DNA of 62,967 nucleotides, counting the filler, from Reclinomonas americana ATCC 50394 (Eukaryota), in NCBI GenBank assembly GCA_048213135.1. It is 17 parts of 17 records of this genome, joined end to end, with 100 filler letters (N's around TTAATTAATTAA, not from the genome) between each part and the next. Parts side by side here need not be neighbours in the genome. Positions count along the whole stretch, not along the records: positions 30,428 to 40,631 come from AFZH01019833.1; positions 40,732 to 42,955 come from AFZH01019834.1; positions 43,056 to 45,893 come from AFZH01019835.1; 14 more parts are not named here. One strand, 5' to 3'. Below are positions 27,151 through 54,084 of the stretch, one piece after another (position 1 is the first letter of the stretch; every line of letters starts with the position of its first letter). The notes beneath the pieces were generated by a model that made no database searches, was not told the DNA's origin, and was given only the letters and a program-made list of their open reading frames with translations. The position numbers and the translations under genes were made by a program.

Positions 27151-30100
27151 CTACTCTCTCTACTACTCTCTCTACTCTACTACTCTCGCTACTCTACTAC
27201 TACGTACCGTACGTACGTACGTACNNNNNNNNNNNNNNNNNNNNNNNNNNNNNNNNNNNNNNNNNNNNTTAATTAATTAANNNNNNNNNNNNNNNNNNNN
27301 NNNNNNNNNNNNNNNNNNNNNNNNACTTAATTTAACTAAACGGTTAAAGTTTAACGAAGTAGTGGTAGTACTAACGAAGAACGAACGAAAGGAACCGAAC
27401 CTACTACCTACTCCTCTCTCTCTCTCTCTCTCGTCTCTCTCTCTCTCTCTCTGTTCCTCTCTCTCTCTCTCTGTTCCTCTCTCTCTCTCACACACACGCA
27501 CACTCTGTTCCTCTCCACATGATCACACACCTCATCGTGTGTCACAGACAAGAGAGTGTGAACAAAGAGACAAGAAGACTAACTAATCTCCTCTCTCAGT
27601 CTCCCTCTCCCTTCCTCTCTCTCTCTCCCTCTCTCTCCCTCTCTCTCTCCCCTCTCCCTCTCCCTCTCTCTCCACGTGTCACAGACAAGACAAAAAAAGC
27701 CGACTCATTTCAGTATCTTCTCTGACAACTCATCTCTCTCTCCTTCTGCCCTCTCACTCTCTCATTCTCCCTGTTGCCTCACGTGTCCATCACCACATGG
27801 ACACTGTATGTGTTTCTTGTTTGAGCAAATGCCGATCATCTGCAACTGCTGATTGCTGCATGCTCGTGTTGCGCTTCAGGCACGCTGCTCAACATGCTCT
27901 TTGGCCTGCAATTCCCCATGATGGAGGCCTCGAGTGGGCGTCATCAGACCACCCGCGGTGTGTACGCCTCCACCGCCAATTCGCCTCCGCTGGAGGGCGC
28001 CTGCCGCGGACGCATCATGGTGTTCGACACGGAGGGCACCGACTCGCGAGAGCGTGCGGAGCGCAGTGCCTCGTTTGAGCGCAAGATCGGCCTCTTTGCA
28101 CTGGCCGTCAGCGACGTGCTGCTCATCAACTTGTGGATGGCCGACATTGGGCGGTACAATGCCGCCAACTATGCCCTGATCAAGAACGTGTTTGAGCTCA
28201 ACCTGCAATTGTTCCAAGTCGAGCAGTTGCGCATCTCCCCTTCCTGACTCAGTCCTCTCCCGTCCGCTCACTCCTTATTTTGGCGGGGACGAGCGCAGCA
28301 GCAAGAAGACGACCATCTTGTTCGTGATCCGCGACCACATTCGGCAAATGACGCCGCTAGAGCGCCTGCAGGAGCAGGTGATTGACGACATGAACACGAT
28401 CTGGAGCCAGCTGAGCAAGCCGGACGCGTTTGCCAGCTCGCGCGTCGAAGATTTCTTCACGCTCCGTTTCTGCTCGCTGTCGCACAAGGTGCTGGCGGGC
28501 GAGGACTTCAACGCCGATGTGCGACAAATGCGTGATCGGTGTGTGTGGGGAGAAGGAGGAGGAGGAGGAGGGGGAGAAGGAGAAGAACGGAAGACGGTAG
28601 AGAGGGTGGGACGACGACGACGACGACGATATGTCATTCTCCTTCTCCTTTTCCCTTGTCTCGTCCTCGCTTCCTCTTCCTCTTCTTCTTCTTCTTCTTC
28701 TTCTTTGTCCTCTCCCTTCTCACTCTTTTTCGTCTTCCTTCCCTCCTTCCTCCATCCTTCTCCTTCTCCTCCTTGGTGCGTTTTATCCCCTGCCATTCTT
28801 TGTACTTTTCTCATCCTCCTTTCACTGTCTGCCTTTCGCTATCTTCCTCTCTTGTCTGTGTGTCATTCTCTACTCCCTGTCGCTCTCGCTGTCTGTCTTT
28901 AACTCTCGCATTCTGTGTGTGTCATTCTCTCCACTCTGTCATTCCTTTTCTCTTCCTATCTCTCTCTCACTCTCTCTATGTCTGCCATTCGCTCTCTTCT
29001 TCTCATGTCTGCATGTCATTCTCCTCTCCCTGTCTTTCTTTTTTCTCTTTCTCGCTCTCTGTGTCTGTCATTCGCTCTATTCTTCTCATGTCTGCATGTC
29101 ATTCTCCTCTCCCTGTCATTCTTTTTCTCTTCTCGTGCTCTCTATGTCTGTCTTTTGCTATCTTCTTCGTCATTCTCTTCGCCCGTCCCAGTCGCTGTCT
29201 CTCTTCCTTCTCCGTCTCTGCCTCTGTTCAACTTCGCTGCCTCTCTTCGCCTTCTCCGTCTCTCGTCAACTTCTTCCTCTGTGTGTGTGTGTCTCTCTCT
29301 CTCTCTGCATCAGGTCTTTCGCTTCTCTTCTTCTCCGTCTCTCTCTCTCTCTCTTCTCGCACTCTTCGTCGTTCTCCTATCTGCTCTCTTTCTCTTTCCC
29401 TTTCTCTTTCCCTTTCTCTTCTTCCTCTCCTTCTCTGACTTTCTCTCTTCGCCATTCTCTTGTCTCCGTCTCTCTCCCCCCTTCTTTCTCCCTTCGTCTC
29501 TGCCTGCTACTCTCTCGTCCGCTCCGTCACCCTCGTCGAATCTTTTCCCCCTCTACCCTCCCTCCCTCCTTGCTCCTTCCTCTCGCCTTCCCCTTCCGCC
29601 CTCTCACTTACCCCTCACTCCCTCCTCCCCTCTCCCCCTCAGGTACTTTTCGCTCTCGGGGGCGGACTCTGTGCTGACGGTCCCGCCGGAGCCGAAGCGA
29701 GTGCCCGCCGACGGCTTCTCGGACTATGCACGCAATCTGTGGGATGCCATTCGTGCCAATCGCGACCTCGATCTGCCGACGGAGCGGCAAGTGGTGTCCA
29801 CCTTCCGCTGCACCGGCATTCTGCAGGAGGTGATTCAGACGCGTGCGCAGCCGCTGTTTGATCGCATCAGCACGGACTATCACCGTCACAACATGGCCTA
29901 CAATCCGTTTGGGTTGTCGGTACAGGAGATGCTCGAGGCGTGCTATGGTAAGGAGGGGGAGAAAGGGAAGAGAAGGGGGAAGGAGAGGGAAGAGAGGGAG
30001 GAGAAAGTAAGGGAAGGAGAGAAAGAGGAAGAAAGACGCAAAGAAAGAAAGAAAGAAAGAGAGAGGAGCTTGAAGAGGATGCGGACAGATGCAGATGACG

Positions 30101-30160
30101 GATGTGTGCACAAAGACAACGGCATAGATCACAGACTTGCAGTGAAGAGAATAATCGCAG

Positions 30161-30213
<53 letters not shown>

Positions 30214-33200
30214 AGAAGAGAGAGTGTGGAGAGAGAGAGAGGAGGAGGAGAGAGTAGTTAGTAGTAGTAGTTCGTCTTACTTTCGTTACGTACGTACGTA
30301 CGTACGACGACGACGACGACGAGGTAGNNNNNNNNNNNNNNNNNNNNNNNNNNNNNNNNNNNNNNNNNNNNTTAATTAATTAANNNNNNNNNNNNNNNNN
30401 NNNNNNNNNNNNNNNNNNNNNNNNNNNAGAGAGAGAGAGAGAGAAAGAAAGAGGGAGAAAGAAAGGGTGTGTGAGAGAGAGAGCGAGGGAGGTAGAGCAT
30501 TGTAAGTGATTGCATTCTTCGTGACACTGGTACACAGAGAGTTCGTCGTCTTCTGAATGTCAACGTCGGTGGTCATCTCTGTTTTTGCGTGTGTGCTCTA
30601 TTTTCTTCCTCTCTCACCTTCACATCTTGCACGTGCACTCCTGTCTTCGCAGGCTGTCGTATTTGGCGCTTTCTTCTGTTTCATTCTCTCCTCCCCTCTC
30701 CCCTTGCCCCTGCGTCTGCTCATTCCACCCTTGTCACCATTCTCATCTTGCACTTGCACTCCTGTCTTCACAAGCTGTCGAATTTCGCCTTCGCTTTCTT
30801 CTGGTTCATTCTCTGCCACCGTTCTCCTCCCCTCTCCCCTTCCCTCTGCGTGTGCTCTTTTTGCACCGTTCTCATCTTGCACGTGCTCCCCTGTCTTCAC
30901 CAGCTGTCGAATTTCGCCTTTCCATTCTCTGCCACCGTTCTCCTCCCCTCTCCCCTTCCCTCTGCATGTGCTCTTTTTGCGCCTTCACATCTTGCACGTG
31001 CTCTCGTGTCTTCACATGCTGTCGAACGTCGCCTTCCTTTTCTTCTGTTTCATCCCGTGTGTGCTCATTTCTTCCAGTTGTCATTCATTCTGCATGCGCT
31101 TTCCTCTCTTCACGAGCAGTCGAGCTCCGCCTCTCCTTCTTTCTCTTTCACTCACATCCCTTCCCCATCTCTCCCCTCCCACAGGCGACTACGAGAAGCG
31201 CACTCAGTTCTACGACCCGGAGATCCGCGCCACCAAGCGCCGCGAGTTGCACGGCAAGCTGATGGAGCTGTTCCAGCCACTGTACGTGCGACAGCTGTCG
31301 TTCCTGCGCCACCGTCTGCTGGCCGTGTTTGCGCGTGACTTTGACGACGTGCTGCGTGAGGCGCCCGTGTGCGTCAAGTTCACCGACACGTTCCGCGAGC
31401 TGCGCGGCAAGATCATGGTGGAGTTTGTGCAGGGACTGCAAGGTGTGGGCGATAAAAAAGGAAAGAGAGAAAGAATATTTTTACTCACCCCTTCTCCCAC
31501 ATTTGCGCACAGCCGAGACCTCGGAGGCCGCCACGTGGACGGAGGGTGCCGAGGAGCGCAAGTTGCTGGAGGAGGAGCTGGATCGCGTGATTGCCACTTC
31601 GCGTCGATCGCAGATTGACGCGCTGCACATTTTGCTGCGCAACAAGACCGAGCAGCGTGTGCGCGGCGAGATGCAGCCGGTGCTCAACAGCCAGAGCGAC
31701 AATCTGTGGACGGCGGCCAAGGAGATTCGTGAGCAGCTGCTGAAGGCGACGGAGAAGGATTTGATGCCGTATGTCATTGGCTTTGAGATGAGTGACGCGG
31801 AGAAGGAGAGCCTGCAAAAGGCGCTGCATGATGCCGTCGACACGGGCATTCTCGCTTGCTTCCGCGATGCTGTTGAGCGGCTGGGTGGTGCGCTGCGCAA
31901 TCGGTGAGTGGGAAGGGGGGAGAAAAAGGGGAAAGGGAGGGAAAAGGGGAGAAAGCTGAGGAAGAGAGGGAGAAAGCAGAGGGAGAGAGAGGGAGGTGGG
32001 AGGGGAAAAATAAGAGGAAGATGATCTGTTGTTACCGAGAACGCAGGGCGTGAGAGAGCGAGACTGAGGGGGAAGAAGTCTGCTTCTGCGACGGAGGAGC
32101 AAGTCGATCTGATCCTTAAGGATGGGGTGATCGAGAACAGGGTGAGCGGGGAGAGAGACGACAAGATCGATCGAGAGTCATTTGAGCTGCTGAGAGCACG
32201 CCAGAGAAGCAAGGCGATCTGATCCTTGAGGATGGAGTGAATGAGTGTCGGGAAGCCAGAAAGAATGACGGGAGAGAGAGGGAGAGAAACGGAGAGTCAT
32301 TTGCGCTGCTGAGTGCAGACGACAAAACGATTTGATCGTTGAGAATGTAGAACCAGTGCAGGAAAAATAGCGAGAGGGGAAGAACTTCGGTCGGGCCAGA
32401 AACGATGAAGTCCTTTGAGCTTCTACATTCATGACAGGGGGGCAAAGGATCTAATCGTTGAGGGCGGAGTGAACGAGAGCAAGAAAGGAAAAAGAGAGCG
32501 AGGGAGGGGGAAAGATGTCATGTGAGCTGCTGAGTGCATGACAAAAGCACCAAAATCTAGTTGACGAGGAGGGGAGAGAGAGACAGAGACAGAGACGAGT
32601 CTCACGAAGAGAGGAACGGGGAGTCATGAGCGCTACCAAGTGCTCGACAGAGAACAACACAATCTTGTTGACAGGAGAGAGAGATTGTTCAGCGCTCACT
32701 CACCTGTTTTACATCCCAGCTTCGACGACGAGTTCAAGCGCGACGCTTCGGGCATGCCGCGCAACTTTGTCAGCGAGCAGCAGATCCGCGAGTGCTTCTC
32801 GCGTGCACGACGCTCGGTGATGCGCTCGCTCGACGACTTGTTTGTGTTCCGCTTGACGAACCCCTACGACGAGTTGCATCTGTTTGACATTGACGCACCG
32901 GTGAGTGCTGTCGACCAGGGAAGATGGAATGGATCATGAAACCAAACCCTTTCCTCATCATTGCAGGACTCGGCCGTCAACGACGTGTATGCCGTGGTCA
33001 ACTTCCCGCGCGGCGACAAGGCCGAGCAGGCCGCCGAGGCCGGTCATTTCCTCATCGATGTGCGTGCCGTGCACGATCTGCACCGCCAGCTGACGCTGCA
33101 CGCGGAGAGCTCGTTCAACGATGCGGCCAATGCGCTGGTGAGTGCGAGTGCGCCGCGACACGATGCAAAGAAGTCTCTCACTCTACTACCGTACAGAGGC

Positions 33201-33691
33201 GCAACGAGGCCGCTCGCGGTCTCCCGCTGTGGGTGTACGGTGCGTGCACAATCCACTTTCCTTGCACAAACAATGACAAACTCACCGACAAGATTCCCAC
33301 GTTTGCAGCGCTGTTGGTGATTCTCGGCTGGAATGAGTTTGTGGCCGTGCTGTCGCACCCGATCGGCCTGGTGCTGCTCATCGGTGCCGCCACGCTCGCC
33401 TACATGTACTACCAAGTGCCGCAATTCCGCGCCTACCTGGCACTCTTTGGCCTCGGTGCGTGTTTGGCGATGTTCGTGTCGCGTCGCGAGTCATGCTCTT
33501 ACTGTCTCTCTCTCTCACACACAGCGGCACCACTGGCTGCGGCGGCTCCTGCGGCTGCAAGCGCCCCAGCTGCGCCAGCCAACAAGGAGTCGCCGGCACC
33601 GTCGCCGACACGCAGCGCCGCCGCACCCTCCGCTTCGTCGGGATCATCATCGTCGGAGAGCGGCAGCGGACTCCGCCGACGCATCACGTGA
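26627..33691 (+). CDS. SEY1: SEY1/RHD3 atlastin-like ER-fusion GTPase, multi-exon, spanning two gaps
   Basis: MALYAQVIDGDGQYT|GELE...YTVLAVLGCQSSGKS|TLLNMLF, QTTRG, DTEGTDSRER, FERKIGLFALAVSDVLLINLW, LFVIRD, VPADGF...WDAIRANRDLDLPTER and C-terminal LPLWVYALLVILGWNEF. Confidence 0.95.
26671..26783 (+). other. U12-type AT-AC intron (SEY1 intron 1, 113 nt)
   Basis: 5' splice site ATATCCTTCT, branch-like CCTTGAC at 26730-26736, 3' end ...CGCAC. Removing it joins AC|T (Thr) and restores the frame. Confidence 0.85.
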
Positions 33692-34799
33692 GCACCGAGA
33701 AATCCAGCACGACAAATCAGGCGAGGAAGGCTTCTTTCTTCTCTTTTACACCAACCGCCCATCATCATTACACGAAATCAACCACATGCCGCGAGTCGCC
33801 AATGAGCAGGAGAGCAGGTGCAGGGATGGGTGTTATCTCGATTTGCACACCAGTGGTCAGTTTTGCGAATCGCATCAGGGGGCTCTTTGTGCACACCAGT
33901 GGCGCATCTGTGGTCAGTGTCGCCAGGAAGAGAATCGTAGCAGACGGGCACTGTGCAGAGAAGGGCGTCGGAGCAGGTGAGAGTTACTCCGAGAAGAGAG
34001 CACGTGGCTGTTCAACGCATCTGTGATCAGAGACGAGCACGAGAATCGTGACGCAGAGTGGCCGTCTCTTCTTCACCACGCAAACCAGTGGCAGCCAGCT
34101 GGCTGAAGAGCAACGAAGAAAGTGTGTCCTTGTTTCCTTGTTGTACACCAGTGGCGAGTTGTCATTGTGCATCTTCGATCGCTGATGCCAGGCGAGTGAG
34201 AATCGCAGAGCACAGATGGCCTTCTCCTTCATCAAGCCTTGCAGAGGCTGGCGCAAGTGATCACTGAAAGGCAGGAATGAAAGAAACAAGCGCCTGTTTC
34301 CCTGTATTTGCACGAAAGAAGATCGTTGTCTTCTGTGTCTTCGATCGCTGGCCAGGCGAGAGAATCGCAGCAGAGAGGCCTTCCTCTTTGCTCAGCCACA
34401 CAGTGGCAGGCTGGCACGCGATCACTGAAAAGCATGCGCAAGAAGGAAGTGAGTGCCAGTTTCCCTTGTATGTTGCACAAGAGTGGTGAGTTGTCTTATG
34501 CTGTCTGCGATCGGTGACAAGCGCAAGACAACACAGAGGCCTTGCCCTTACACTCAGAGGCCCAGAAAGCAAGTGCGATTTCACAGGTGTCATTGTGCAG
34601 AGAGAGAATCGCCACCCGCCGCCTCTTGCTCTTCTCAATGTACACAAACATTCATTCATTATTACACAACCACACAGCGCACGAAGACAGCTGCCTGTCA
34701 TGCGGCGACCGAGAGCATCTGTAATGCGACACCAACTGCACGCAACAATCAATCAGTCAGTGAACTGCCATCACAACAAGAAACACCCCTCCGTGACTC

Positions 34800-35159
34800 A
34801 CCACTGCCAGCGGCAATGCGCGCGCCACTGCTCAACGCTCGCATGCGTTTAACGACCGGAGCAGGCGGAGCAACAATGGCGGTTGCTGCAATCTTCTTCT
34901 CGTCATTGCCAAATGCAACAGCACGCTCTTCCGCGGGCGAGAACATGCCGTGCTCATCGTCATCGGCCTTCCATGAGTGATCATCACAGTCGTCGTCATC
35001 ACAGTCAGTGTCGACTTGCTCGTCTTGTGAAGGAGGCAGAGGTTGTGTTGTTCGGGTTGTTGTTGTCTTGCGCAGCTTGCGTTCAGTGATGGTGGCGATT
35101 ACAGTGAAGAGGATGATCAGCACGTAGAGTGCCATGTAGAAGCAGGAGGAGACGGCCAT
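34800..35159 (-). CDS. Possible first exon of an uncharacterised protein with an N-terminal TM/signal anchor and an acidic tract
   Basis: ACAAAATG start context, hydrophobic MALYVLIILFTVIATI, and a GTGAGT donor near 34800. Downstream exons not resolved. Confidence 0.35.
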
Positions 35160-36165
35160 TTTGTTGTTGGTCAGCGCTCACAGGCGGGCAAGAAAGATTG
35201 CTTTTTGAGTCGGGTTCGTCGGATTGCGAGCTCCGCGTCTGTCCGAGCGGGCGCGAGCGCGAGCGCCGACGCCGATCCGCATTTTGCTCCGATTCACCGC
35301 GCGGGAAAACTGTTTGTGTGTGTCGCGAGAGATGGTTGGTGTGGAGTGGGAGGAGAAGAAGGCAGCGCACGTGCTACGCGTGTGCTGCTGGATGAAAACG
35401 AGCAATGTTTCGTGCAATGTTCGATTTGGTTATTATTACCTCCCACCGATTTAGCACTTTGCGGAAGACCGTGCTGACGCATGCATGGTTAGGTTCTTGG
35501 CATGGCAGCAGTCGGTGTCGGAGCGCGGAGTCGCTCACGGAGCATGGTTCTGAATTCGAACAACACAAGTTGGAAATTCGTTCGAGCACTGCTCGCGATC
35601 GGCAGCACGCTCTGCTCCCGGAAACGAAACGGAAATGGTGTATTTGGGTGTGCTGCCGATGATGCAGACGACAGCACCACCGGATCTATCTGAACGCTTT
35701 TTCTTCATGATCATTTCTCTTGCAGAATTCGAAACGCCAGCCATCGTTTCCGTGCTGTCTCTGTTTCTGGTGCTCACTCAAGATTGTGATCATCATGCAG
35801 CTGTTGCTGTTGTTGTGAGTTCATGCTTGTCACGAGTCATGCATGGTTTCACTGCTGAAACGCCAGCGTAAGGCATCTCAACTTTCTCTCACACTGTTTC
35901 CGTAAAGTCTGTCTCTGGTGCGCACTCAAGTTGGGTGTACAGTGATCATCACCCAGCTGCGTTGTTACGTGGCTCACAAAGATTGTTGTTATTGCTGTCA
36001 TTCTCTTGTACGGTGCTTCTCACACGTCTTAGTCTTCGTGTCTCTGACGCACACCCATCACAATGACCACCGCCATGCTGCTGTGTGCCTCTGCTAACCG
36101 GCACACAGCCGACCATCCCAGTCTGTGTATCCAGTCTCGCCACAAACGACTGCTTCCAATCGATT

Positions 36166-39100
36166 TCACGGCGACGATGGCGCAGCTGCGGTGGTTGTTG
36201 GTGATGTAGCGTGCGTCGCCGTTGGTGGCGCCGCAGACATCGGAGCAGCCACATACGGCGGTGGCAATCTCACCCTCGAGAAAGTGGCCCTGAGAATGCC
36301 CACCAGGTCCGTGGAGGAGGGTCGATCCACCGGCTTCGCCTGCAACACCAGCATCCGTGTCAGCAACACGCAGACGCAGCTGTCGGTTTCCCCATCACGC
36401 AACTGCCCAGCACATTTCGATGACTCGACGATGGTCAGCGCTCAAAAACGGGTGATCCAGCGCGCCGGGCATGCTTCCCCGACGCACCGAGTCCAACAGA
36501 TGCGACGCTCCCACACCATCGTACGGCTTGGTTCGCGTGACACAGCACCACAAAATGGTGCCGAAGGAGAAAATGTCGGCACGCTCGTCGTACTGCACCC
36601 ACACATGAGCGGAAGGAGACAACCATTTGCACACCAGCGCGTAGAGCTCACCGGCTCCCCCATGAGCACTTCTCGAGCCGCATACGCCGGTGTTCCAACA
36701 ACAGTGCGCAGCTGGACCAGCGTGCGCCATTCCTTGGCCTCACCAAAGTCGCAAATCTTGACAGTGCGGCGATCGTCACTCACGAGAATGTCTGTCGCAC
36801 AGGGCGGGATGAGCGTGGCAGTTCACAACCACAGAGCGCCACAAGGTGGGACGCAACTCTCGGGTTTCAAATCCCGATGAACGACTCGTCGCGTGTGCAT
36901 GTGTTCCAGTGCCTCAGCGACTTGCACCAGCAGTTCGATCAGGTCGTCCGTCCTGTAGGCATCCTCGTCGATCAACGACTGCAGCGTGATCGGTGAGCCA
37001 TCAGCCTGCCCGATGTACTCGAGCACCAGAGCGGGTCCGCCAGGCATCTGCTCACACACTGCCAGGATCTTGACAATGTTCTGGTGACTGGAGAGCCAGT
37101 TAGCCAAGCGATCGACGCTTCGGAGAAGCAGAGAATGTGAGACGCAACTCGAGCCTCATCAGCTGCCGTTCCTCATTTTCGATGGCTTGCAGCAGCTTCT
37201 CTCTGTTGGCTGTGTTTGCGTGACACACGTACTGCTTGTACGCTACGTCCACCAGATCGCCTCCGATCATGCAGGTGGCCCGGAAAACCGGTTGTTGACC
37301 TGTTGCACGACAAGACGGGGAAAGCAGAAGTCAGCGACGAACTGCAACTGTATAACTTACACGGACGACTGACCGACTGCAAGTGGGTGGCTGTGCGCAA
37401 TAGCGTCTGCCTGTACGCGTGGCGCGCGAAGCACGAGTCGTTCGAGAGCAACCTTGAATTTCTCGTCCGTATCTTGTAACGAGTGCACTTCTGCGACACA
37501 GAGAACGGCGAATGAGGTGAGCGCAATAATGATTCGGCACCACACGACAGATGACGCAACTGTCGTATGACTTGGACAGCTCCTCGATGCACGGGTGATT
37601 GGCGGGGAACAGCTGATGCAGAATGTCGCGAATGGTGCGCATGCAATGCCGGTACTCGCTGTCGGACAGGGTCGCCGACGCCACCAGGTGCGAAACACGG
37701 TTACGCATATCTTTCAGCTCCTTCACCATGTCAATCTGTGGGGTGAGAGTAAGAAGGGGGAAGCGAAAGGGTGGGGGAAGCGAAGGGGGTAGACGAGGGG
37801 AAGAGAAGGGGGAAGAGAAGGGGGAAGCAAAGGGGAAGCAAAGGAAGATGGCAGAAGGGGGGAAAGCAACAGCGATCTAGTGCAGACAGAGAACGCAACA
37901 ATGGCCGCGTCGGTCGTCTTGTCCAGCATACGGATAGCCAACCGATCCTGACCGGGCGAAGCGCCGACACGAACGGCATAGTTGCCCACGTTGGCATGCG
38001 TGCAGACTGCGACTGGCACATACGAGATCTCCAGCAACAGTGTTGACAGCAGCGTCACATCCATCAGCGCGGTCGAGCCCGACCTCTTGAATTCTCGCAC
38101 AGCGTCGTATTTGTCAGCGAACACCTGCGCCACACGCCGAGACTTCTTTCCGGCGGCGTCCAGTGAGAACCAGGCGTATCTATGCATGGTACAGGTACGA
38201 AGAAGTGAGACAACGAGCTCAGGTACCTCCAAAACAAACGAAGATGCTTTTCCACGGACCTCTCATCCCCACATTTCTAAGTCTGTGTGTCTGCTCTCTC
38301 TCTCTCACGCTCTCCTCTCTCTGCACTTCTGTGTTCTTCCCCTTCTTGTCGTCCAAACCGCCCCTGCCTCTCCCACTCTCTGTCTCTCTTTCTCACTCGA
38401 TCTCTCCCTATCCGTCTCTCCTCCCTTCTTCATTCTCTCTCTCTCTCTCACACACACATTCTGCCTCTCTCGTCGACGCTCTCCTATTTCTTGTAGCCCC
38501 GCACTATCCCTGACTCTCTCTCTCTCTCTCCCGTCACTTCCTCTTCACACCCACTTCCCTTCGCAGCACAATTACTCACCGATCTGGAACGTTCTTCGTA
38601 CAGAGCTGTTCGATATCGTACTCGCCGGCGGCGAACTTTGCCGTAAATCGTGCCATGTGATCCACAAAGAGCACGCCGAGAGCCTTGGGGAGCACCTTGT
38701 ACATCATCTCGTCGAGCATGATGATTCGCCGTCGCTTGCTGTAATGTTGCCAGCGTTAGTATTTCAGCAGCTAGGGAGGTGGCAAGCACGATGGCGCCTG
38801 TAACGCACCTGAGGAACTTGGAGTGCATCTTGGAGCCCAAGTTTTCGGTCAATGACTTCTTTTCTTCTTCCGCAGCTTTCAGTGACCGCTGTAGATCAGC
38901 CAGCTGCTGCTGCAGCTCTGTGACAACAGGAGCCAGTGCCGCTCCTTGCGTGTCCTTGAGTTCCTGGAGTCGTCGTTCACGTTCCTCTCGTTCGGTCTGC
39001 GCCAGCCTGCGCTGCGTCTCGATTGCCGACTCCAGCACCTCAATCTGCTGTTGAGCTTGCCTCTGCAGCTGGTCCTTTAACTCCAGCTGTCTGCGGAGAT

Positions 39101-42100
39101 CCTCCAATGCTGCGAGGTCTTCTTGTTGCAATCCCACGTGCGTAGGCTGCAAGAGGACACAGATGCAAGTGAGCGCTGGTCAGACGGCAATAATGACGAG
39201 AGGAGTGAGACGGACAAACCTGGCTGCTGCTGTACTGCAGGCTTGAAGAGCCAGCTGTGCCAAGGGAATATGAGCATGCACAACAAGATCACGCAAAAAT
39301 AGAGAGAAAAAAAGAGCATGGGAGAGGGACATGCAAGGACGCCCAACAGGCAACACAGGAACATCACACGCACACATACACGAACACACAGACACAAAGC
39401 AACAGAGACACGCATGGACGCAACACACGGCAACACACAAACATACGCAGAGAGAGAGAGAAAGAATGAGAGAGAGAGAGAGAGACGCGCGAGGGGCGCA
39501 TAAACGTGGCAGACAATTCGGAGAACACAGACAAAACAGGCACACATGCGCATCCGCACGTACACGGAGGGAGAGAGTGCAAAGACACACACGGACGCAA
39601 ACCCGTACAACAGACAATAAAGTGAATGCAAACAAACACAGGTACACCGACACACACAACGTACAATACAGAGAGACACGAACGGACGCGACACACGACG
39701 TACAATACAGAGAGAGAGACAAACAAACATACACCGACACACCCGTACAGCAAACAAACACGAATGTAGTGTGAGCAAGAATGAATACAAGCCCAGCACA
39801 TTCGATTCACGCACCTCCCGCAGATCTGGTGGGCGATCGCGGTCGCAAGCGCGGGGCACGCCGCTCGAGCTGCTGCACGACATTGAGATGCCCTTTCCTC
39901 CGCGCCACTTGCACAGGCGTGTTGCCATCGCCGTCGATTCGGTCGATGAGATCCGGGTACTTGTCGGCGAGTTGAATGGCGACTCGTACGTGCCCGCGAG
40001 TGGCTGCACAGTGCAGTGCGGTGGAGCCGCGTACACAGTCTTGCAGTGGGCTCGAGGTGACGGCAAATGCCGCGTCGCGGGAGCAGCGCTGGGTGTCTTC
40101 CAGCAACCAGTCCACCACCGAATGCACGCCATACGTGGCGGCGGCCATGAGCGGCGTCCAGTTGCCGTTGCCCAACGTGGCTGCAAGCTGCCGTCCCATT
40201 CCGCTGTCGCGCCACAGGTACTCCAACACCGGGATGTGACTGCGACGAGCGGCTGCGTGGAAGCACGTACAGCGATCGTCGTCGCGTTCCGAATCGGCCA
40301 GCAGAATGGCGGCGCCCTCATTGTCCACCAATGTTCGCAGCGCCGCCACGTCTCCACGCTGCGCAATGCGCCATGCCTTCTCACGAACTGCGAGGAGGAG
40401 AAGGGGGGTGAGTTGAAGGGGGGTGAGGAGAAGGGGGGAGAGAGAGAGAGACAAGGCAAAGAAAGAGGAGAATAGGAGAGAGACACGGAAAAGGAGGAGA
40501 ACAACAGGAGAGAGAGAGAGAGAGAGAAAGACAATACAAAGGAAGAGGAGAAGGGGAGAGAGACAAGGCAAAGGAAGAGGAAAAGTGGAGAGAGACACCG
40601 TAAACGGAACCGAGAGAGAGAAAGACAAGGCNNNNNNNNNNNNNNNNNNNNNNNNNNNNNNNNNNNNNNNNNNNNTTAATTAATTAANNNNNNNNNNNNN
40701 NNNNNNNNNNNNNNNNNNNNNNNNNNNNNNNACAAGGAAGAAAAGAAGAGGAGAGAGACATGGAAAAGGGAGGAAACAACAGAGAGAGAAAGACAAGGCA
40801 AAGGGAGGAGAACAACCGAGAGAGAGAAAGACAAGGCAAAGGAGAGGAGAAGAGGAGAGAGACACGGAAAAGGGAGGAAACAACAGAGAGAGAGAGAGAG
40901 AAAGACAAGGCAAAGGAGAGGAGAGAGACATGGAAAAGGGAGGAAACAACAGAGAGAGAATTCAAGGCAAAGGAAGGAGAACAACCGACAGAGAGAAAGA
41001 CAAGGCAAAAGGAAGAGGAGAATAGGAGAGAGACACGGTAAAGGGAGGAGAGCAACAGAGAGAATGAGGAGAACGGCAGAAAGAAAGTGATCAATAACAA
41101 GAAAGGAGAACCAAAAGGAATGCAGAGAGAGAGAGAGAGAGAAACACAGAGCAGAGGCTGCGAAACCGCGCAATTATCATACCTGCATCGCCGCCAGGGG
41201 TAGTTTTCGGACTGCCGCTGCCGTCAGTGGAAGCGGTGGCAGCTACTGCTGAGCCCGACGGCCCCGCCGCCAGGTCCGGATTCCGTGTCTGCCTCTGCAG
41301 GTCCGCCACTTGCATGCGGGCCAATTCGTCGGTGAGCAAGGCATAATTATGCTGACGCGCCACTGCGATTGCCGTCTTGCCCGCGGCATTCTTGGCCATC
41401 AGCAGCTCCGGGTACGAGCCGACAAGCACGTGCACAATGTCAACGTTACCACCGGCGGCCGCATAGTGCAGCGCGGTCGATCCATCGTGGTTGGTGGCCG
41501 CCACCGCAACATCGCGCGGGCACCGCCTCTCGTCCTGCAGCAGCCACTGCACCACTTCGGCGTGGCCGTTGCCGGCAGCCACCATCAGCGGTGTCTCGCC
41601 GCTGTCGGTGCGCCGTCGGGCGAGGGTGACGCCGATGTCGCCAGTCGACCACAGAAACTCGAGAATGTGCAGGTGGCCACGCTCGGCGGCGCAGTGAAAG
41701 ACCGACGAACCGACGACGTCCATGGCGGTGTCGCGGTTGAGGAGGATGCGCGGGTCGCCGCCGGTGAGGGCGATGAGGTCGCGGAGGGCAGGGAGATCGC
41801 CGGCGTGGGCCATTTCCCAGGCTTTGGGGAGGGTGCTGCAAAGGGGGACGAAGGGGGAGAAAGGGGGACAATGGGGAAAGGGTGAGAGAGGGAGGGGGGA
41901 AGGGGGAAGGGGGAAGGGGGGAGAGGGGAAGGAGGGGAAGGGGGAAGAGGGGAAGGGATGAGGGACTGTGTGATTGTGGTGTGTGCGCGTGTGCGTGTGT
42001 GTGTGCATGAGAGAGAGAGAGAGAGAAGAAACGAGAATCAGCGTACCCAGCATAGCATGAAGACTACAAACAGTGAAGAGCAGGTTTCGCGAAAGAGAGC

Positions 42101-42750
42101 AGTGCCACAGGAAGTGAGTAACGACGAATTCTAGTGAGCAATCCAGCTTGTGGAGGGCACAGAGAAAGCAAGCAAACACTGAGCGTATCAAAGGACGTGA
42201 ACGAAGCGGACGAATGAAGTGAGTGGCATGAAATGATGAGAGAGAGGAGGAGGAGAAGAAGAAGAAGAAGAAGAGGAACAAGAACAAGAAGAAACGAGAA
42301 TCAATCGGATGCAGCTTCTCGTCAACAAACAGTTAAGAGCAGGTCTCACGAGAGAGTGGTGATACAGGAAGTAGCATGACATCTCATGAGCAATCCAACT
42401 TGCAGAGCACAGAGAACGATTCCAGGAACGTGAATGCAGCGGACAAATGAAGTGAGTGGCATGAAAGGATGAGAGAGAGAGGAGGAGGAGAAGAAGAAGA
42501 AGAAGAAGAACAAGAACAAGAAGAAACGAGAATCCATCGGATGCAGCATCTCGTCAACAAACAGTTGAAGAGCAGGTTTCACGTGCGACCGAATGAGAGT
42601 GGTGATACAGGAAGTAGCATGACATCTAGCGAACAATTCAGCTTGCAGAGCACAGAGAGCAAGAGGGCGGTGGAGTGAGCGTTTCCAAGAACGTGAATGC
42701 AGCAAGCGAGTGGCACGGAGTCTCATAATCATCGCCACAACAGAGAGATG

Positions 42751-42786
<36 letters not shown>

Positions 42787-43055
42787 CAGGAGAAGCGATA
42801 ACAATGCGACACGTGTCGAGAAGAGCGACCGCTGCAAGTCGACACAATAAAGAGCGGAGAGAGAATGCGCCACGACAAGGCAAAAACACGACGAAAAATC
42901 CCGTGACACGAGAAATCAGTGACGAAAAGAAAAGAGAGAGAGAGAGAGTGTGTGTNNNNNNNNNNNNNNNNNNNNNNNNNNNNNNNNNNNNNNNNNNNNT
43001 TAATTAATTAANNNNNNNNNNNNNNNNNNNNNNNNNNNNNNNNNNNNNNNNNNNN

Positions 43056-43101
<46 letters not shown>

Positions 43102-43533
43102 AGAGAGTAACGTGACGTGACAGAAAATAGTGGCCTCCGCAAGGCAATCGTGACACAACAAGAGAATGAGCCACGACAGTGTAAACAAGGCAAAAACACG
43201 ACAAATCCCGGTCATCACTCAACCATGACACGAGAAATCAGATGCAAAAATATCGAGGAGAAAAGAAGGCAACACAATGCCTGCAAGTGAGTGACAGTGA
43301 GACACACATGAGCGGTGTAAAACCCGACAGAACAACCTGTCACAACCACTCATGACAAACTCTGATAATGTCCGCCACTCACACACAAGCACTCACACAC
43401 AAGCAAGGAGACACACACATAAAAGAGCACAGAAAACACAGGAGAAAAAGACATGACAAAATTTTCACAAAGAGGGCACAATAAGACGACAAGCAGCAAA
43501 ACGCAACTCTGGTGAAGGCGGAGGTGCCGACAT
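36166..43533 (-). CDS. Ankyrin-repeat / coiled-coil / HEPN-like / protein kinase multidomain protein, spliced, spanning two gaps
   Basis: Exons 43533-43508, 41835-41183 (ANK block 1) and 40387-39815 (ANK block 2) have matching phases. Coiled coil at ~38810-39150. HEPN-like MDVTLLSTLL...MVKELKDMRNRVSHLVASATLSDSEY. Kinase motifs VAYK, HRDLKPE|N, VKICDFG, GTPAYAARE, ADIFSFG, IEMCW..P..RPS. Confidence 0.8.
42050..42720. repeat. ~240-nt degenerate tandem duplication in the first intron of the ankyrin-kinase gene
   Basis: GAAACGAGAATC...CATC/CTTCTCGTCAACAAACAGTT..GAGAGTGGTGATACAGGAAGTAGCATGACATCT repeated at ~42290 and ~42525, with a weaker copy at ~42030. Confidence 0.75.
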
Positions 43534-44340
43534 TGTTTATGTGTGAGTGAGAGAGTGTGTTTGTGACGAGTGAAGGTGCGTCGGGTTGCCGGGAATGGAA
43601 CAGAACTCGGGGAAAGAAACACGACAATGATAAAAGAAGAGCGCGTGTGAGGGAGAAGAGAGAGAGAAACAAAAGGAAGAATGAGAAGAAGAAGAGAGAG
43701 AGGAGCGCGCACGACGACGAGCGCAAGTGAGGTGACAGACAGTGATAAAGCGAGTGAATTGTCTTGCCGCGCAAATGCAGTGCGTTAGAAACGGTCGCCG
43801 TCACATAGCATGCTGAGTTGACGGCAGCGGTGGGTCTCTCTCTCTCTCTCTCTCTCTGTGCGTGTGCGTGTGTATGTGTGCAATTGGAACACAACAACAA
43901 TAACAGCAACACAACAATTCATTCACCATGGCCAACAAACAAGCAACAGCTGTCTTGGCTGTCTTGATGACTGTGTCCAACCATATCCATCTCCAAACAC
44001 GAACATAAACACCAGTCTTGAGGCAACAGCAGGTTCGAGTGCATGTGTGTTTCGTTCTCGCGATTGGATCCATGAAAGTGGACCAGAGGTGCACACCACA
44101 GTGGACGAATGCGGAACTGCAGGTGGTGCCTGGCAAACAAGGCCAGTCCCATGGCCATTGGAAAAGGCTGCATCTAATCGATTGAATCACTCAATCTCCG
44201 CACGCAAACTTGTGAGACAACCCCCTCTGCTTGTTTCACACTGTGCGTGCTATTCTTTTTCTGTTCTCATCAGGCTGCTGCTTCCAGTGTTTCTCCACAA
44301 GTGCATTTTCGCATGGCTCAACATCTCCTCGGAAAGGGGC

Positions 44341-45195
44341 ATGGCATCCCTCAACAGGCCTCAGCTCGGCCACCGTTCCGTCGCCGCGACCAAGCGACCC
44401 TTCAGAAAAGTTGTGTGCTTGTGTGCGTGTGTGTGCGTGCGTGTGTGTGTTGCGCGCAACCAAGAATGGATTTACACAGTGGAGGAAGCACGTCGGTCTG
44501 CCATGGAATGGGGTGCGTTTTGCGTGCAAGAGCCGCAGTCAGCCAGCCGCGTTTGTGACTCTTCTTCTCCTCTTGTGCGCAGTGGAATCCAACCCGGATC
44601 ACGAAAAGCAGCGGATGCAGGAGGAACTGGAAACGCTCTCGGAGGAAGATCGCCAGCGATGTGAGTGGACGTCTTTTTGAGAAGGTTCTTGCGCGTGGCG
44701 TTGCGAGACCAAGGCGTACGTATACGGCCACAGGGCTCCTGTTCCACGAAGCCCAGGCAGAGAATCTTCGGCTGAAGTGAGTGGTGTCGTGTGCCGCGCC
44801 AACAACTCGTCGTTTGTTCAACCGCGTGCACGGCACAGAAAGTTGGCGGCGTGCTTGGACACAGCACGACGCGACTTTGCGGATGACCTTCGGCAGCTGC
44901 AGGTGTGATACTGAGACCTCGTTGCGAAGTGGCCACCCTTCCCAGTCACAGATCTCTGTTCTGTTGTTATCAGGTTGGCTCGGAGCCTCTGCGGGAGCGA
45001 GCTGTGGAACTGCGTCGCATCCCCCTCAGTCGTGAGCGGCTGCCCGTGTGTGACTACGTCGTTGAAGAGCTCAAGCGGCTGTCGCCTGCCGACGCATCGT
45101 CTCTGTCCGTCTCCGTGGGTTTCATGAGTCTGTTGGACGCCATCCGGCGCATTGCTTGCCGCCAGTGTCATGTTTGTCATGCGTACGGATTGTAG
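44341..45195 (+). CDS. Small spliced hypothetical protein
   Basis: ATG at 44341, several donor and acceptor signals typical of this genome, and coding-like segments (EKQRMQEELETLSEEDRQR; last exon VGSEPLRERAVELRRIPL...). No family recognised. Confidence 0.35.
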
Positions 45196-45689
45196 TAATC
45201 AGCGCTCCGTTGTGATCCCGTGCATATTGGCGACGGAAAGCACGAGTCGCACTGTGAACACACATCGTTCTGCTTGCCAATGCGGCGCTTATCAATTGGC
45301 GATGGGAAACGCACTCACGTTTTGTAGTCACAGCGCGACCAATGAACCGGACTGTGGAAAATCACCGCGTTTTTTTCTTTGTGTTGCGCGTGAGGTGAGT
45401 TTCTCTGTGGCCTCGCTTTCTCTGTTTCATTGCCGCACACGTACACGTGCATTCTGTCACACCTTTTTTGGTTTGTGTATGTTTTGTGCATGCGTGAGTC
45501 ACCGCCAATGCGCGCGCTGACGTCAAAGCGCTCACGTCACCACGCACATGGACAAACTCAATTCACACTCTGCACACGCAAACATGCACATTGCCTGACA
45601 CACACACACACACGCATCTCTCGCTCTTGCGCACGTGCACTCACGTGTGTGTTTGCGCGCGCGCGTCATCTCTCACACAGGCAAACAAC

Positions 45690-47875
45690 ATGGCCGAGAA
45701 ACGAGCTCATTCAGCGGTGAGTGCAAGGGAGGAGAGAGAAGAGAGCGTGAGAGAGAGAGAGAGAGTGAAAAAGAGTAGACACACACACACACACACGCAG
45801 AGAGAGAGAGAGAGAGTTGTCACACACATTCTCACTCTCTTTGTCTCTCTCTCTCACTTTCAGCTCTCTGACGGGGACGATGTCGACGCTGGANNNNNNN
45901 NNNNNNNNNNNNNNNNNNNNNNNNNNNNNNNNNNNNNTTAATTAATTAANNNNNNNNNNNNNNNNNNNNNNNNNNNNNNNNNNNNNNNNNNNNGGCAGTC
46001 CAGCAGAGAAGCGACGCAAGACGACAACTGATGCAACGTCGACTTCAACCACGACGACGACGACTTCGGTGACGGTGAATGGGAATGGTGGGAACGTCGA
46101 TGTCGTCGGTGGTGCGGGTGCAGGACAGGCGCCGCCGCCGCCGCCACCGCCATTGTCGAGCGAGCCACCGCCGTTAGGAGAGGGTTTGTCTTGCAGGGAG
46201 AAGGGGGGGAGAGAGAGGGGCTTTATCGTGTCAGTTTCCACTTGTCAGTTTCTGCTGTCTGGCACTAAGTGGTTCTCTCATCAGTTTCTGCTGTCTCTGT
46301 ATTGAGCGTTCCTTGCCCTTCACTTGTCAGTTTCCACTGTCTTCCAGGCTGCTTGCACTGCGAGTGATTCTCGTTTCAGTTGCTGCTGTTCCTGCTTTCA
46401 GCATTCCTCACCTCCCACTTGTCAGTTTCTGCTGTCTTGCATGCTACTGGCACTACAAGTGGTTCTCTCATCAGTTTCTGCTGTCTCTGCTTTGAGCGTT
46501 CTTTGCCCCTCACTTTGTCAGTTTCACTCTCTTCTGCTTGCACTACGAGTGGTTCTCGTTTCAGTTTCTGCTGTTTCTGCGTTGAGCGTTCCTCACCTCT
46601 CTCTTGTCAGTTCCATTCTCTCTCATGCTACTCTATGGTTTTCGTATCAGATACTTCTGTCTCTGCTTTGGGCGTTCCTCACCCTCGCACTTGTCAGTTT
46701 CCACTGTCTCTTATGCTGCTTGCTACGAGTGGTTCTCCCCTTGAGTGGATCGATCTTGCATCCTGTGGGCGTTCCTCACTTTTCACTTGTCAGGTTGTGT
46801 TGTCTTCCATGAGCTACTCGCACCGCAAGTGATTCTCTTCATCAGTTTCTGCCATCTCTGCTTGAGCGTTCCTTGCCCCTCACTTGTCAGGTTCACCCTC
46901 TTCCTTGCTGCTTGCACTACGAGTGGTTCTCTCCATGAGTCGATCGCTTGTTAACTTGCATCCAGTGGGCGTTCGTCATCTCTCAGTTGGAGCTTTTTCA
47001 CTGCCTTTCTTGCGATCTGCCCCTACCTGCTTTCACATGCTCGCTGTCGGCTTGCATTCTCCTCATCTCGTTCTTGTCAGCTTCCACTGCTCTCGTGCTC
47101 TTTGCACTCTGTGAGTGGTTCTCTCATCAGTTGTCAAACTGCATCCATGGGCTTCGCTCACCTCTCGCTTGTCAGTTTCACTCTCTTCTGCTTGCACTAC
47201 GAGTGGTTCTCTCATCAGTTTCTGCTGTCTCCGCTTTGAGCGTTCCTCACCTCTCGCTTGTCAGTTCCATTGTCTCTCATGCACGAGTGGTTCTCTCCAC
47301 GAGTGGATCGATTGTCAAACTTGCATCCTGTGGGCGTTCCTCTTTTCTCTCTTGTCAGTTCTCTCTGTCTTCCATGTGCTTTGCTTCTTGCAGTCCACCT
47401 GCCCCGCTCTCTCTCTCTCTCTNNNNNNNNNNNNNNNNNNNNNNNNNNNNNNNNNNNNNNNNNNNNTTAATTAATTAANNNNNNNNNNNNNNNNNNNNNN
47501 NNNNNNNNNNNNNNNNNNNNNNCGCCGCCGGCGCCATGGCCGGCGCGGGCGGTGCGTCCGTAGGCTCCGGCAGTGGCGCCGACAGCGACGACGATTCAGG
47601 CAAGGGCGGTGGCGGCAGGCGACGAGGATCGACCGGCAGCCGTCGGGAGAGCGGTGGTGGAGATGTTGTGTTTGTGCGTGTGTGCATCTCTTGAGGTTGG
47701 TCGACAGCGGCTCAACGCGCGGTGCGCACAGGTCGGTCAGCGACGAGAGAAGAATCGCCTGGCCGCGCAACGCAGTCGCGAGAAGAAGAAAATGTGGGTG
47801 ACGGAGTTGAATGGGCGCATTCAGGAGCTCGAGGAGGAGAATCGCGGGTTGCAGGAGCGCATTCATCAGTTGGAG
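45690..47875 (+). CDS. bZIP transcription factor, spliced, spanning gaps, 3'-incomplete
   Basis: Basic region and zipper RREKNRLAAQRSREKKKMWVTELNGRIQELEEENRGLQERIHQLE (~47732-47875). Linkage to upstream exons from the ATG at 45690 is inferred. Confidence 0.75.
46230..47400. repeat. Degenerate intronic minisatellite
   Basis: Recurring TTGTCAGTTT, GCACTACGAGTGGTTCTC and TTGAGCGTTCCT blocks. Confidence 0.8.
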
Positions 47876-48930
47876 GTGCGTTGCAGGGAAAGGGGAGGGA
47901 AAGGAGAGGGAGGGGTGGGATGGGAAGGGAGGGATAGGGAAGGGAAGGGATGGAAAGGGGAGGTCGGGGTTTATGTGCTTCCGGTGAAAGGGACAGATGA
48001 GGCGCCCCGCTCTCGAGTGCGTGACGGCGATTTCGAACAGATACAACTATGTGGAGGTAGTTAGAGAGAAAGAGATTTGATGTTCCAATGATGTGCTGTC
48101 TGCCTCTCTTTCTCTCCATGCATGTGATTCCCTTTGCTTCCCCTTTTTTTCCTCGCTGTCGATTCGAACAGATCCAACAATGTGGAGAGAGCGAGAGAGA
48201 GTACGAGGGACAACACGAGAGAATTCGTTTTCGCAACATGTCATCTATTTCTCTTGTGAGCGCGACATCACGTCTTTCTCTTTCTCTCTCATTCTCCACT
48301 TTCTCTCCATGAATATACTCCTCTTCGCTTTCTTTTGGCTTCCCCTTTTCTTCCCTCTCTTCCCCGTCGCTTCGCCCTGTGTCTCCCTGGCGACCCGAAC
48401 CGATGCACCTATGTGGAGAGAGTGCGAGAGAATATGAAGGACAGAACGAGAGAACGCGTGACGTCTTCCTCTTGTCTCTCTCGCTGTATGTCTGTTTGTC
48501 TCTTCGTTTGTCGTCCATCTCTCTCTCGCCATGCATGTGCTTCCCCTTCACTTTTCCCCTCTCTTCCCCCCTTCACTTCCCCTTCGCTTCCCCTTCGCTT
48601 CCCCTCCGCTTCCCCTCCGCTTCCCCTTCGCTTCCCCTCCGCTTCCCCTTCGCTTCCCCTTCGCTTCCCCTTCGCTTCCCCTTCTCTCCCCCCTTCTCTC
48701 CCCCTTCTCTTCCCCTTCTCTTCCCCTTCTCNNNNNNNNNNNNNNNNNNNNNNNNNNNNNNNNNNNNNNNNNNNNTTAATTAATTAANNNNNNNNNNNNN
48801 NNNNNNNNNNNNNNNNNNNNNNNNNNNNNNNGGAGGTCTTGGTTGCATTGCGTCTCCGGTATGGTGCCCCGTCAGCCCCTTCGGAGAGGCATTTGCGTCC
48901 GTGTCGGCTATGGTCGCTCCGGAGTTTGCC

Positions 48931-49995
48931 ATGTCCGTTGCCATGCCCCTGCTTGCCGCGCCGATCTCGCGGCGCGGGTTCGGGCGTTTTCTTGCCGGCA
49001 CCGGCCTCGCCGCCTGGGCCGGGCTGCACAATGCGCCCGTGGCCGCCGCGTCGATCCCGCTGCGTTTCACGCTCGACTGGCGCTTCGAGGGACCGGCCGC
49101 GCTGTTTCTGACGGCGCTGGACAAGGGCTATTTCCGCGATGAAGGGCTCGACGTCACTATCGAGCCCGGGACCGGCTCGCGCGAAGCGATCCCAAGGGTC
49201 GCGACCGGCGGTTTCGATGCCGGTTTCGGCGATGTGAACACCCTGGTCCGCTTCCGCGACGATAACCCGACTGTCGATCTCAAGGCGGTGATGATGGTCT
49301 ATGACCGCCCGCCCTTCGCGATCGTCGGGCGCAAGAGCCGCGGTATCAGCGCCGATCCGAAGAGTCTGGAAGGCAAGAAGCTCGGCGCGCCCGCCGCCGA
49401 CGGCGCCTTCGCGCAATGGCCGGTGTTCAAGAAGGTCAACGGCATTGACGATGCCAAGATCAAGCTGGAGAATATCGGCTTTCCGGTGCGCGAGCCGATG
49501 CTGGCATCGGGCGAGCTCGATGCGATCTTCGGTTACGCCCATACCTCTTTGATCAATCTGAAGGCGCGCGGCGTGCCGGCCGACGACATCGTCATGATGC
49601 TGATGGCCGATCATGGGGTCGAGCTCTACGGCAACGCCGTCATCGTCTCGCCGAAGCTGCTCGCGGAGAAGCCGCAGGCGGTGCGCGGCCTGCTGCGGGC
49701 GATCACGCGCAGCGTTCGCGACGTCGTCGCCGATCCGGAGGCGGCGATCGCCGGCGTGCTGCAGCGCAACGAGGGCGCTCGTCCCGAGATCGAGCTGGAC
49801 CGCCTGAAGATGGCGCTCGATCACTATGTGATGACGCCGAATGTCAAAGCACTCGGCTTCGGCGGTATCGACAAGGCGCGCTGGCAGAAGGGGCTCGATC
49901 AGATCGGCCTGACCGTCTCGTTCAAGGACAAGGCGAAGGCCGGCAACGCCTTCGCCGAAGGCTTCCTGCCGGCGGAGGCCGAGCGCGCGTTCTGA
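48931..49995 (+). CDS. ABC transporter substrate-binding protein, NMT1/THI5 (SsuA/TauA-like) family, with Tat-like signal; start approximate
   Basis: SRRGFGRFL twin-arginine motif; FTLDWRFEGPAALFLTALDKGYFRDEGLDV; LYGNAVIVS. Confidence 0.85.
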   Translation: MSVAMPLLAAPISRRGFGRFLAGTGLAAWAGLHNAPVAAASIPLRFTLDWRFEGPAALFLTALDKGYFRDEGLDVTIEPGTGSREAIPRVATGGFDAGFGDVNTLVRFRDDNPTVDLKAVMMVYDRPPFAIVGRKSRGISADPKSLEGKKLGAPAADGAFAQWPVFKKVNGIDDAKIKLENIGFPVREPMLASGELDAIFGYAHTSLINLKARGVPADDIVMMLMADHGVELYGNAVIVSPKLLAEKPQAVRGLLRAITRSVRDVVADPEAAIAGVLQRNEGARPEIELDRLKMALDHYVMTPNVKALGFGGIDKARWQKGLDQIGLTVSFKDKAKAGNAFAEGFLPAEAERAF

Positions 49996-53977: not shown

Positions 53978-54084
53978 AAACCGGNNNNNNNNNNNNNNNN
54001 NNNNNNNNNNNNNNNNNNNNNNNNNNNNTTAATTAATTAANNNNNNNNNNNNNNNNNNNNNNNNNNNNNNNNNNNNNNNNNNNN

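Follow-up and report, generated by a model that had tools for sequence, protein, structure and literature searches.

The window analysed here, a stretch of 62,967 bases from the Reclinomonas americana ATCC 50394 assembly GCA_048213135.1, is a chain of separate contigs, and all positions are counted along the whole chain. Between 43533 and 36166, its minus strand carries an interrupted gene whose spliced product comprises two ankyrin modules, a long helix, a putative HEPN-like domain with an R-N-x3-H motif (RNxxxH) and a protein kinase. The reading that we favour, tentatively and at less than even confidence, is a single 13-exon gene for a cytosolic sensor-kinase-RNase of about 1,059 residues, in which the two ankyrin modules would have arisen by tandem duplication, a helix of about 100 residues would serve for dimerisation, the HEPN domain would be of the DZIP3/Swt1 type and the kinase would be a competent enzyme resembling the tyrosine kinases and the tyrosine kinase-like group (TK/TKL). 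The first-pass annotation had described the gene as the domain set of RNase L in a permuted order; the ankyrin blocks, the coiled-coil-like helix, the Rx4H motif at 37688-37705 and the kinase motifs VAYK, HRDLKPEN and DFG were all recovered on the minus strand where it had placed them.

The spliced model (Table 1, where exons are numbered 1-13 along the minus strand) runs from the ATG at 43533 to the TGA at 36168-36166 and contains 3,180 nucleotides, corresponding to 1,059 codons and a stop. A script check found no internal stop in the spliced frame and GT-AG at the borders of every intron; the open frame is partly circular as evidence, because the junctions were picked so as to keep it. Codon usage provided an independent check: trained on four other open reading frames (ORFs) of the window and applied to 12 exons, exon 1 being too short, it favoured the model frame over the five others in 10 of them. 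The two others were the low-complexity last exon (36339-36166) and exon 8 (37490-37374), which is the weakest exon of the model.

The splice sites carry a signature of their own. The heptamer GTTGCGT, in which positions +3 and +5 are T and C, makes an unusual consensus for a 5' splice site. It is the donor in 6 of the 12 model introns, and the window as a whole has 18 copies of it on the minus strand (3762, 3890, 4437, 4796, 5747, 6431, 7914, 13786, 14428, 24262, 34746, 36403, 36857, 37148, 37560, 37899, 39424 and 43507) vs 2 on the plus strand. This strand bias, together with the copies in other contigs carrying minus-strand genes, makes it look like the organism's own splice signal. Additionally, a TACTAAC box lies within the 70-nucleotide intron 38808-38739. 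Exon 1 was picked after scanning 45893-41836 for ATG-opened frames ending in a phase-2 donor; GTTGCGT was the donor in only one of the four candidates (43533-43508), the phase of which suits the acceptor of the first ankyrin block.

Both ankyrin blocks were recognised far above the Pfam Ank_2 cut-off of 27.3 bits, block 1 (ANK1) with an expectation value (E) of 8e-20 and 71.6 bits (and with Ank at E 8.1e-18), and block 2 (ANK2) with E 9.9e-19 and 68.1 bits. Having 39% identity over 176 residues (E 2e-34), the two are paralogues; their use as mutually exclusive (alternative) exons was considered and ruled out, since their entry phases differ. The following exon, rich in Q, E, L and R, was predicted by AlphaFold2 run without an alignment to be one helix spanning residues 4-111 of 112, at a mean predicted local distance difference test (pLDDT) of 90.9, and in windows of 28 residues hydrophobic side chains occupy as many as 7 of the 8 a/d heptad positions. 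Such a helix may form a coiled-coil dimer.

The kinase gave Pfam matches on three separate exons (Pkinase, E 3.6e-12 and 7.9e-09; PK_Tyr_Ser-Thr, E 1.1e-06). Its minus-strand motifs VDVAYK (37252-37235), HRDLKPEN (36879-36790, split by an intron) and CDFGEAK (36753-36733) are accompanied by GTPAYAAREV, DIFSFG and the subdomain XI Arg, the residues of subdomains IX and XI being kept. With the beta-3 Lys, the HRD Asp, the catalytic Asn and the DFG Asp all present, the kinase looks active and is predicted to be catalytically competent. The nearest solved chains of its C-lobe exon are EGFR (7e-10) and TAK1 (4.5e-06), for which reason it is called TK/TKL-like. About 50 residues rich in P, A and T separate the kinase from the stop at 36166.

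Between the helix and the kinase lies the region for which a HEPN fold is proposed. The motif RNRVSH is encoded at 37705-37688 (minus strand; model residues 679-684), with R, N and H intact and a polar residue after the R, and MDVTLLSTLLLEI is encoded at 38064-38026 on the same strand. In the sections of PMC3710099 that bear on catalysis, intact R, N and H residues of this motif are described as required for the RNase activity of KEN and PrrC. Exon 7 (57 residues), scored by itself, was matched best in Pfam by HEPN_DZIP3 (PF18738; 17.7 bits, E 0.0031; residues 5-45, model positions 82-122 of 144), with HEPN_Swt1 next (16.8 bits, E 0.0085; model positions 78-113 of 115). Out of 24,736 Pfam models, the first two ranks go to HEPN families, in each of which the alignment lies exactly over the catalytic helix with its Rx4-6H motif region, and no piece of the gene matched the KEN/Ribonuc_2-5A profile among the Pfam matches at E up to 0.1-1. 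A true HEPN domain in this position seems to us fairly likely and, if real, it is by its profile matches of the DZIP3/Swt1 kind and not KEN.

Table 1 Exons of the ankyrin-kinase gene, the contig linkers inside its introns and the neighbouring NACHT-WD40 gene
Feature	Position	Strand	Remarks
Exon 1	43508..43533	-	ATG 43533-43531, 8 codons + 2 bases (MSAPPPSP..), donor GTTGCGT; contig 43056-45893
Contig linker inside intron 1	42956..43055	.	N44 + TTAATTAATTAA + N44
Exon 2, ankyrin block 1	41183..41835	-	acceptor TTTGCAG, donor GTATGA, phase 1; contig 40732-42955
Contig linker inside ANK1-ANK2 intron	40632..40731	.	N44 + TTAATTAATTAA + N44
Exon 3, ankyrin block 2	39815..40387	-	donor AG/GTGCGT (exon/intron), phase 1
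Exon 4, long helix, coiled-coil-like	38809..39121	-	5' end uncertain, alternative starts 39175 or 39146
Exon 5, start of putative HEPN-like domain	38580..38738	-	E-x3-K; TACTAAC box in preceding intron
Exon 6, middle of putative HEPN-like domain (MDVTLLSTLLLEI)	37900..38179	-	donor GTTGCGT; only in-phase acceptor in open frame
Exon 7, C-terminal half of putative HEPN-like domain with RNRVSH	37561..37735	-	weak HEPN_DZIP3/HEPN_Swt1 matches
Exon 8, linker into kinase glycine-loop region	37374..37490	-	codon score not best of six frames
Exons 9-13, kinase	37299-37149, 37087-36858, 36791-36652, 36592-36404, 36339-36166	-	then P/A/T-rich tail, TGA
RNxxxH-NACHT-pentapeptide-WD40 ORF	19793..23962	-	single ORF, 1,389 residues

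Several points weigh against the proposed sensor-kinase-RNase, and the first of them concerns the assembly. The window contains 16 identical 100-bp linkers, each consisting of N44 + TTAATTAATTAA + N44 (the N runs, 32 in all and each exactly 44 long, come in pairs). These are artificial six-frame-stop linkers of the kind used for chaining contigs, so features crossing one may be non-contiguous in the genome. The gene model is spread over three contigs (30428-40631, 40732-42955 and 43056-45893), exon 1 and ANK1 sitting on contigs other than that of the remaining exons and being joined to them via such linkers; the two "gaps" of the first-pass annotation are both linkers between separate contigs rather than sequencing gaps within one scaffold. 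It is highly unlikely, in our estimate, that the model is an artefact of assembly or annotation, in which the contigs would be non-adjacent, or ANK1 and exon 1 (possibly also ANK2) would come from separate paralogous genes, leaving a helix-HEPN-like-kinase protein with or without ANK2 as the real product. Such an artefact would fit the artificial chaining and the presence of bacterial contigs further along the same chain, but a GA-rich minisatellite unit is found at both contig ends facing the 40632-40731 linker, on one strand, and nowhere else in the window (two unit patterns, whose 6 and 7 matches, respectively, all fall inside 40444-41044, where shuffles expect 0). The phases also fit, exon 1 ending in phase 2 and ANK1 opening with one base, and ANK1 ending in phase 1 and ANK2 opening with two bases; a fit at both junctions would arise by chance in about 1 of 9 cases, but it is joined by the same orientation of the pieces and by the lineage-typical GTTGCGT donor of exon 1. 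GA/CT microsatellites near both sides of the 42956-43055 linker (42754-42782 and 43059-43107) are weaker evidence of adjacency than the minisatellite. Repeat continuity and phase fit, taken together, suggest that the contig order and orientation are probably right. The presumed first intron also contains two copies of a 232-bp unit (88% match, 42195-42658), with AGA and AG microsatellites nearby.

A further difficulty is that the ANK2-helix join needs the second-best splice site. The strongest acceptor of the helix exon (CTCTTGCAG, CAG at 39147, exon start 39146) requires phase 0, whereas the ANK2 donor (39815/39814) is in phase 1, a mismatch that an artefactual model would account for. Three in-phase options are available, namely an AAG acceptor (start 39121), a CAG acceptor (start 39175) and a GTGCAG donor at 39879 combined with start 39146, and all of them leave the frame open, giving 1,059, 1,077 or 1,046 residues, respectively. 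A micro-exon in this intron, ahead of the GTTGCGT at 39424, was dropped as a candidate, there being no AG in the approximately 150 nucleotides upstream. The helix exon itself is open for 112 codons, has no ATG until near its end and scores best for codon usage in the model frame, so an upstream coding exon is needed; within its own contig, ANK2 is the sole upstream sequence that looks coding, and this argues against a separate origin of the ankyrin part. From the spliced single product proposed earlier, the open 1,059-codon frame and the matching phases at exon 1, ANK1 and ANK2 are retained, while the best helix acceptor is out of phase and ANK1 and exon 1 lie on other contigs. The single 13-exon transcript is inferred across two artificial linkers and one ambiguous junction.

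The middle domain meets objections of its own. The two HEPN scores are sub-threshold (17.7 vs a Pfam gathering cut-off of 27 bits for HEPN_DZIP3, and 16.8 vs 27.5 bits for HEPN_Swt1), the former resting on 41 of 144 model positions, and matches of like E-value arose by chance in the same scans, one of them to Peripla_BP_3 (E 0.0048, ANK1 ORF). Exons 5 and 6, which would make up the N-terminal two thirds of the domain, were unmatched in Pfam, NCBIfam and PADLOC; exon 7 likewise had no match in NCBIfam and PADLOC, and its PDB sequence search returned designed repeat proteins only. No homologue of exon 6 (38179-37900) was present among 227 candidates, and the one locus given by a metagenome scan with this exon had no matching ORF and was judged spurious. 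Moreover, a six-frame translation of the window contains 31 matches to R[NQ]xxxH and Rx4H is not above chance, so RNRVSH alone proves nothing and takes its weight only from its context. In a language-model feature search, two unnamed clusters ranked first for exon 7 (0.90 and 0.89), and its similarity of 0.85-0.86 to clusters partly carrying PF18738 or DUF4559 is a lead only. What remains of the HEPN assignment made in the first-pass annotation is the pair of HEPN families heading the exon 7 matches, at scores below the family cut-offs and over the C-terminal part of the domain.

The motif count, the sub-threshold scores, the unmatched remainder and the missing relatives would all suit a protein in which the middle region is not HEPN at all, but a lineage-specific helical spacer that carries RNRVSH by chance within an ankyrin, coiled-coil and TK/TKL-like kinase protein of a class like ILK or TNNI3K. 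We regard this as somewhat unlikely: a spacer would have to draw HEPN models to both of the first two Pfam ranks precisely at the catalytic helix, and the feature search leads separately, if only as a lead, to clusters of PF18738 or DUF4559. ILK and TNNI3K are ankyrin-repeat TK/TKL kinases, and they share with the present protein the N-terminal ankyrin repeats followed by such a kinase; they differ from it in having no HEPN-like domain between the two.

Two further points bear on function. The glycine loop of the kinase is degenerate (..AVGQQPVFRA.., with a single Gly vs GxGxxG), an observation that rests on the uncertain exon 8/9 junction (37374/37299), and the antiviral or stress role suggested earlier is pure inference. 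The same gene may also encode a HEPN-type domain without RNA-cutting activity, which would bind RNA or some other ligand and thereby turn on the kinase, the true effector. PKR is a kinase with double-stranded RNA-binding domains, and the present protein would be PKR-like, with HEPN replacing those domains. This arrangement, which would suit both the fully active appearance of the kinase and the occurrence of a Swt1-like HEPN as one of the two Pfam matches, appears unlikely. Some HEPN domains, such as those of Swt1 and MtlR, are given as non-catalytic RNA-binding modules in the relevant passages of PMC3710099, but the same passages state that R-N-x3-H, which is intact here, is usually lost in inactive HEPN versions.

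The comparison with known systems begins with RNase L, in which, too, a single chain contains ankyrin repeats, a domain of the kinase fold and a module of the HEPN superfamily bearing Rx4-6H. The kinase domain of RNase L is a pseudokinase, whereas all of the catalytic kinase motifs are kept here; the order there is ankyrin, kinase and KEN, but here it is ankyrin, helix, HEPN-like domain and kinase, with the long helix as an insertion; and exon 7 matches the DZIP3/Swt1 models with no KEN (Ribonuc_2-5A) match. Because of the DZIP3/Swt1-type matches, the lack of a KEN signal and the position N-terminal to the kinase, RNase L offers an analogy of parts and not homology of the RNase module. The likeness would be functional and convergent, and the earlier description as a permuted RNase L domain set stands as an analogy. 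Ire1, too, couples a kinase to a HEPN-superfamily RNase, with dimerisation as the expected switch; its KEN domain is C-terminal to the kinase and it is a membrane protein of the endoplasmic reticulum (PMC3710099, section 9), whereas here the HEPN-like domain is N-terminal and no membrane segment was seen. KEN belongs to the HEPN superfamily and, within Table 1 and section 9 of PMC3710099, is the only HEPN family listed with a Ser/Thr/Tyr kinase fusion, always C-terminal to the kinase. The RNxxxH domain of the present gene is N-terminal to the kinase, and the KEN-type position directly C-terminal to it is not the one found.

The DZIP3/hRUL138-like HEPN family is nearer, being the best Pfam match of exon 7, though under the family cut-off. 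Table 1 of PMC3710099 gives this family fusions to ankyrin repeats and NACHT ATPases, and both partners occur here, ankyrin in the ankyrin-kinase gene and NACHT in the ORF at 19793-23962. The family is described as mainly animal, with lineage-specific expansions, in the corresponding part of PMC3710099, in contrast to the microbial eukaryote considered here, and the portions of that paper available to us name no kinase fusion for it. HEPN RNases also occur in animal death-domain and STAND expansions, for which the available portion of PMC8195603 does not mention a kinase.

In the literature found, which included Table 1 and section 9 of PMC3710099, no ankyrin-HEPN-kinase protein is described, in agreement with the earlier remark that this combination was not recognised as a described family. 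The kinase-exon search gave 9 relatives at 34-47% identity (6 kinase+TPR, 1 kinase+WD40 and 2 kinase only), none of which carries a HEPN or ankyrin family, and the ANK2 exon retrieved 13 relatives, all of them generic ankyrin proteins that lack a kinase or HEPN family. The fact that no homologue with the same architecture was returned by the exon 6, kinase-exon and ANK2-exon searches also counts against the proposed protein, but this absence is weak evidence, because the lineage seems poorly sampled. The ankyrin-HEPN-kinase gene is real as sequence, and it is plausible as a variant architecture.

The second gene of interest, the NACHT-WD40 ORF (Table 1), lies about 13 kb from the ankyrin-kinase gene along the contig chain. 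A region with VRNEMVH is followed in it by NACHT (2.7e-07), pentapeptide repeats (1.6e-08) and 14 WD40 stretches, and, judged from these matches, the protein has the effector-NACHT-repeat layout known from STAND defence proteins. Its N-terminus gave weak HEPN signals (HEPN_Swt1, E 0.077; PADLOC CARF_HEPN, E 0.025) and, in the feature search, similarities of 0.93-0.94 to clusters that in part carry PF18738 or DUF4559. The 224-residue RNxxxH domain of this protein has no relatives among 1.84 billion representative proteins searched with HMMER and no NCBIfam match, and AlphaFold2 without an alignment reached a pLDDT of 37 for it. The single HMMER match, an NHL-repeat protein, was judged spurious. 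BLAST of both RNxxxH domains aligned 13 residues around the motif (E 0.037); the similarity between the two domains is not significant, the observed score being reached by 41 of 500 shuffles, which likewise counts against the proposed sensor-kinase-RNase.

The NACHT-WD40 neighbour hints at a defence-type repertoire. In the more far-reaching form of the proposal, an active kinase and a coiled coil would control a DZIP3-type HEPN RNase under an ankyrin sensor as a convergent RNase L/Ire1-like device, and the gene would be part of a lineage-specific innate-defence repertoire together with HEPN-like, NACHT and WD40 proteins such as the product of the 19793-23962 ORF; in this full form, it seems rather unlikely. 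Three paralogous WD40 ORFs on the plus strand (16091-17326, 17435-18583 and 25110-26324) share the N-terminus MSSVPPLICR and the C-terminal tail RCLPE.VLRCFLVEDAEA; as they flank the NACHT gene, a local family expansion is suggested.

The contigs up to approximately 48.7 kb look eukaryotic: their GC content is 46-59%, they contain CT/GA and CA microsatellites, and their genes, among them one for an RHD3-type GTPase, are interrupted. An interrupted RHD3/Sey1-type GTPase gene is located at 28180-32000 on the plus strand (RHD3_GTPase, E 1.5e-23), and its presence confirms the eukaryotic nature of these contigs. The contigs at 48832-62967 have a GC content of 58-66% and intron-less ORFs of bacterial type, with matches to AMP-binding (E 2e-69), Peptidase_S11 (D-Ala-D-Ala carboxypeptidase, E 7e-56) and an NMT1/THI5-like binding protein (E 1e-36). 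This part of the chain appears to be bacterial sequence co-assembled with that of the eukaryote.

If the ankyrin-kinase gene does encode the proposed sensor-kinase-RNase, the following mode of action can be envisaged. The ankyrin modules would bind a protein or small-molecule cue, and two chains would be paired by the helix, possibly aided by kinase-kinase contacts, so that two HEPN domains could jointly form the kind of composite RNase site that characterises the superfamily. Autophosphorylation of the kinase might gate the HEPN pairing, or the kinase might relay the signal. The overall device would be RNase L/Ire1-like in function, although derived from a different HEPN family and arranged in a different domain order.

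Should the HEPN call fail, an ordinary protein with ankyrin repeats, a coiled coil and a kinase would be left. If the model is real, it would add the first case of a HEPN module coupled to a kinase outside the KEN family, meaning that kinase-gated RNA cleavage had been invented independently, in a protist, and the DZIP3-type HEPN architectures, so far mainly animal, would be extended to a microbial eukaryote. Taken with its RNxxxH-NACHT-WD40 neighbour, the gene would then offer a way into the innate immunity or stress signalling of a lineage that has been little sampled.

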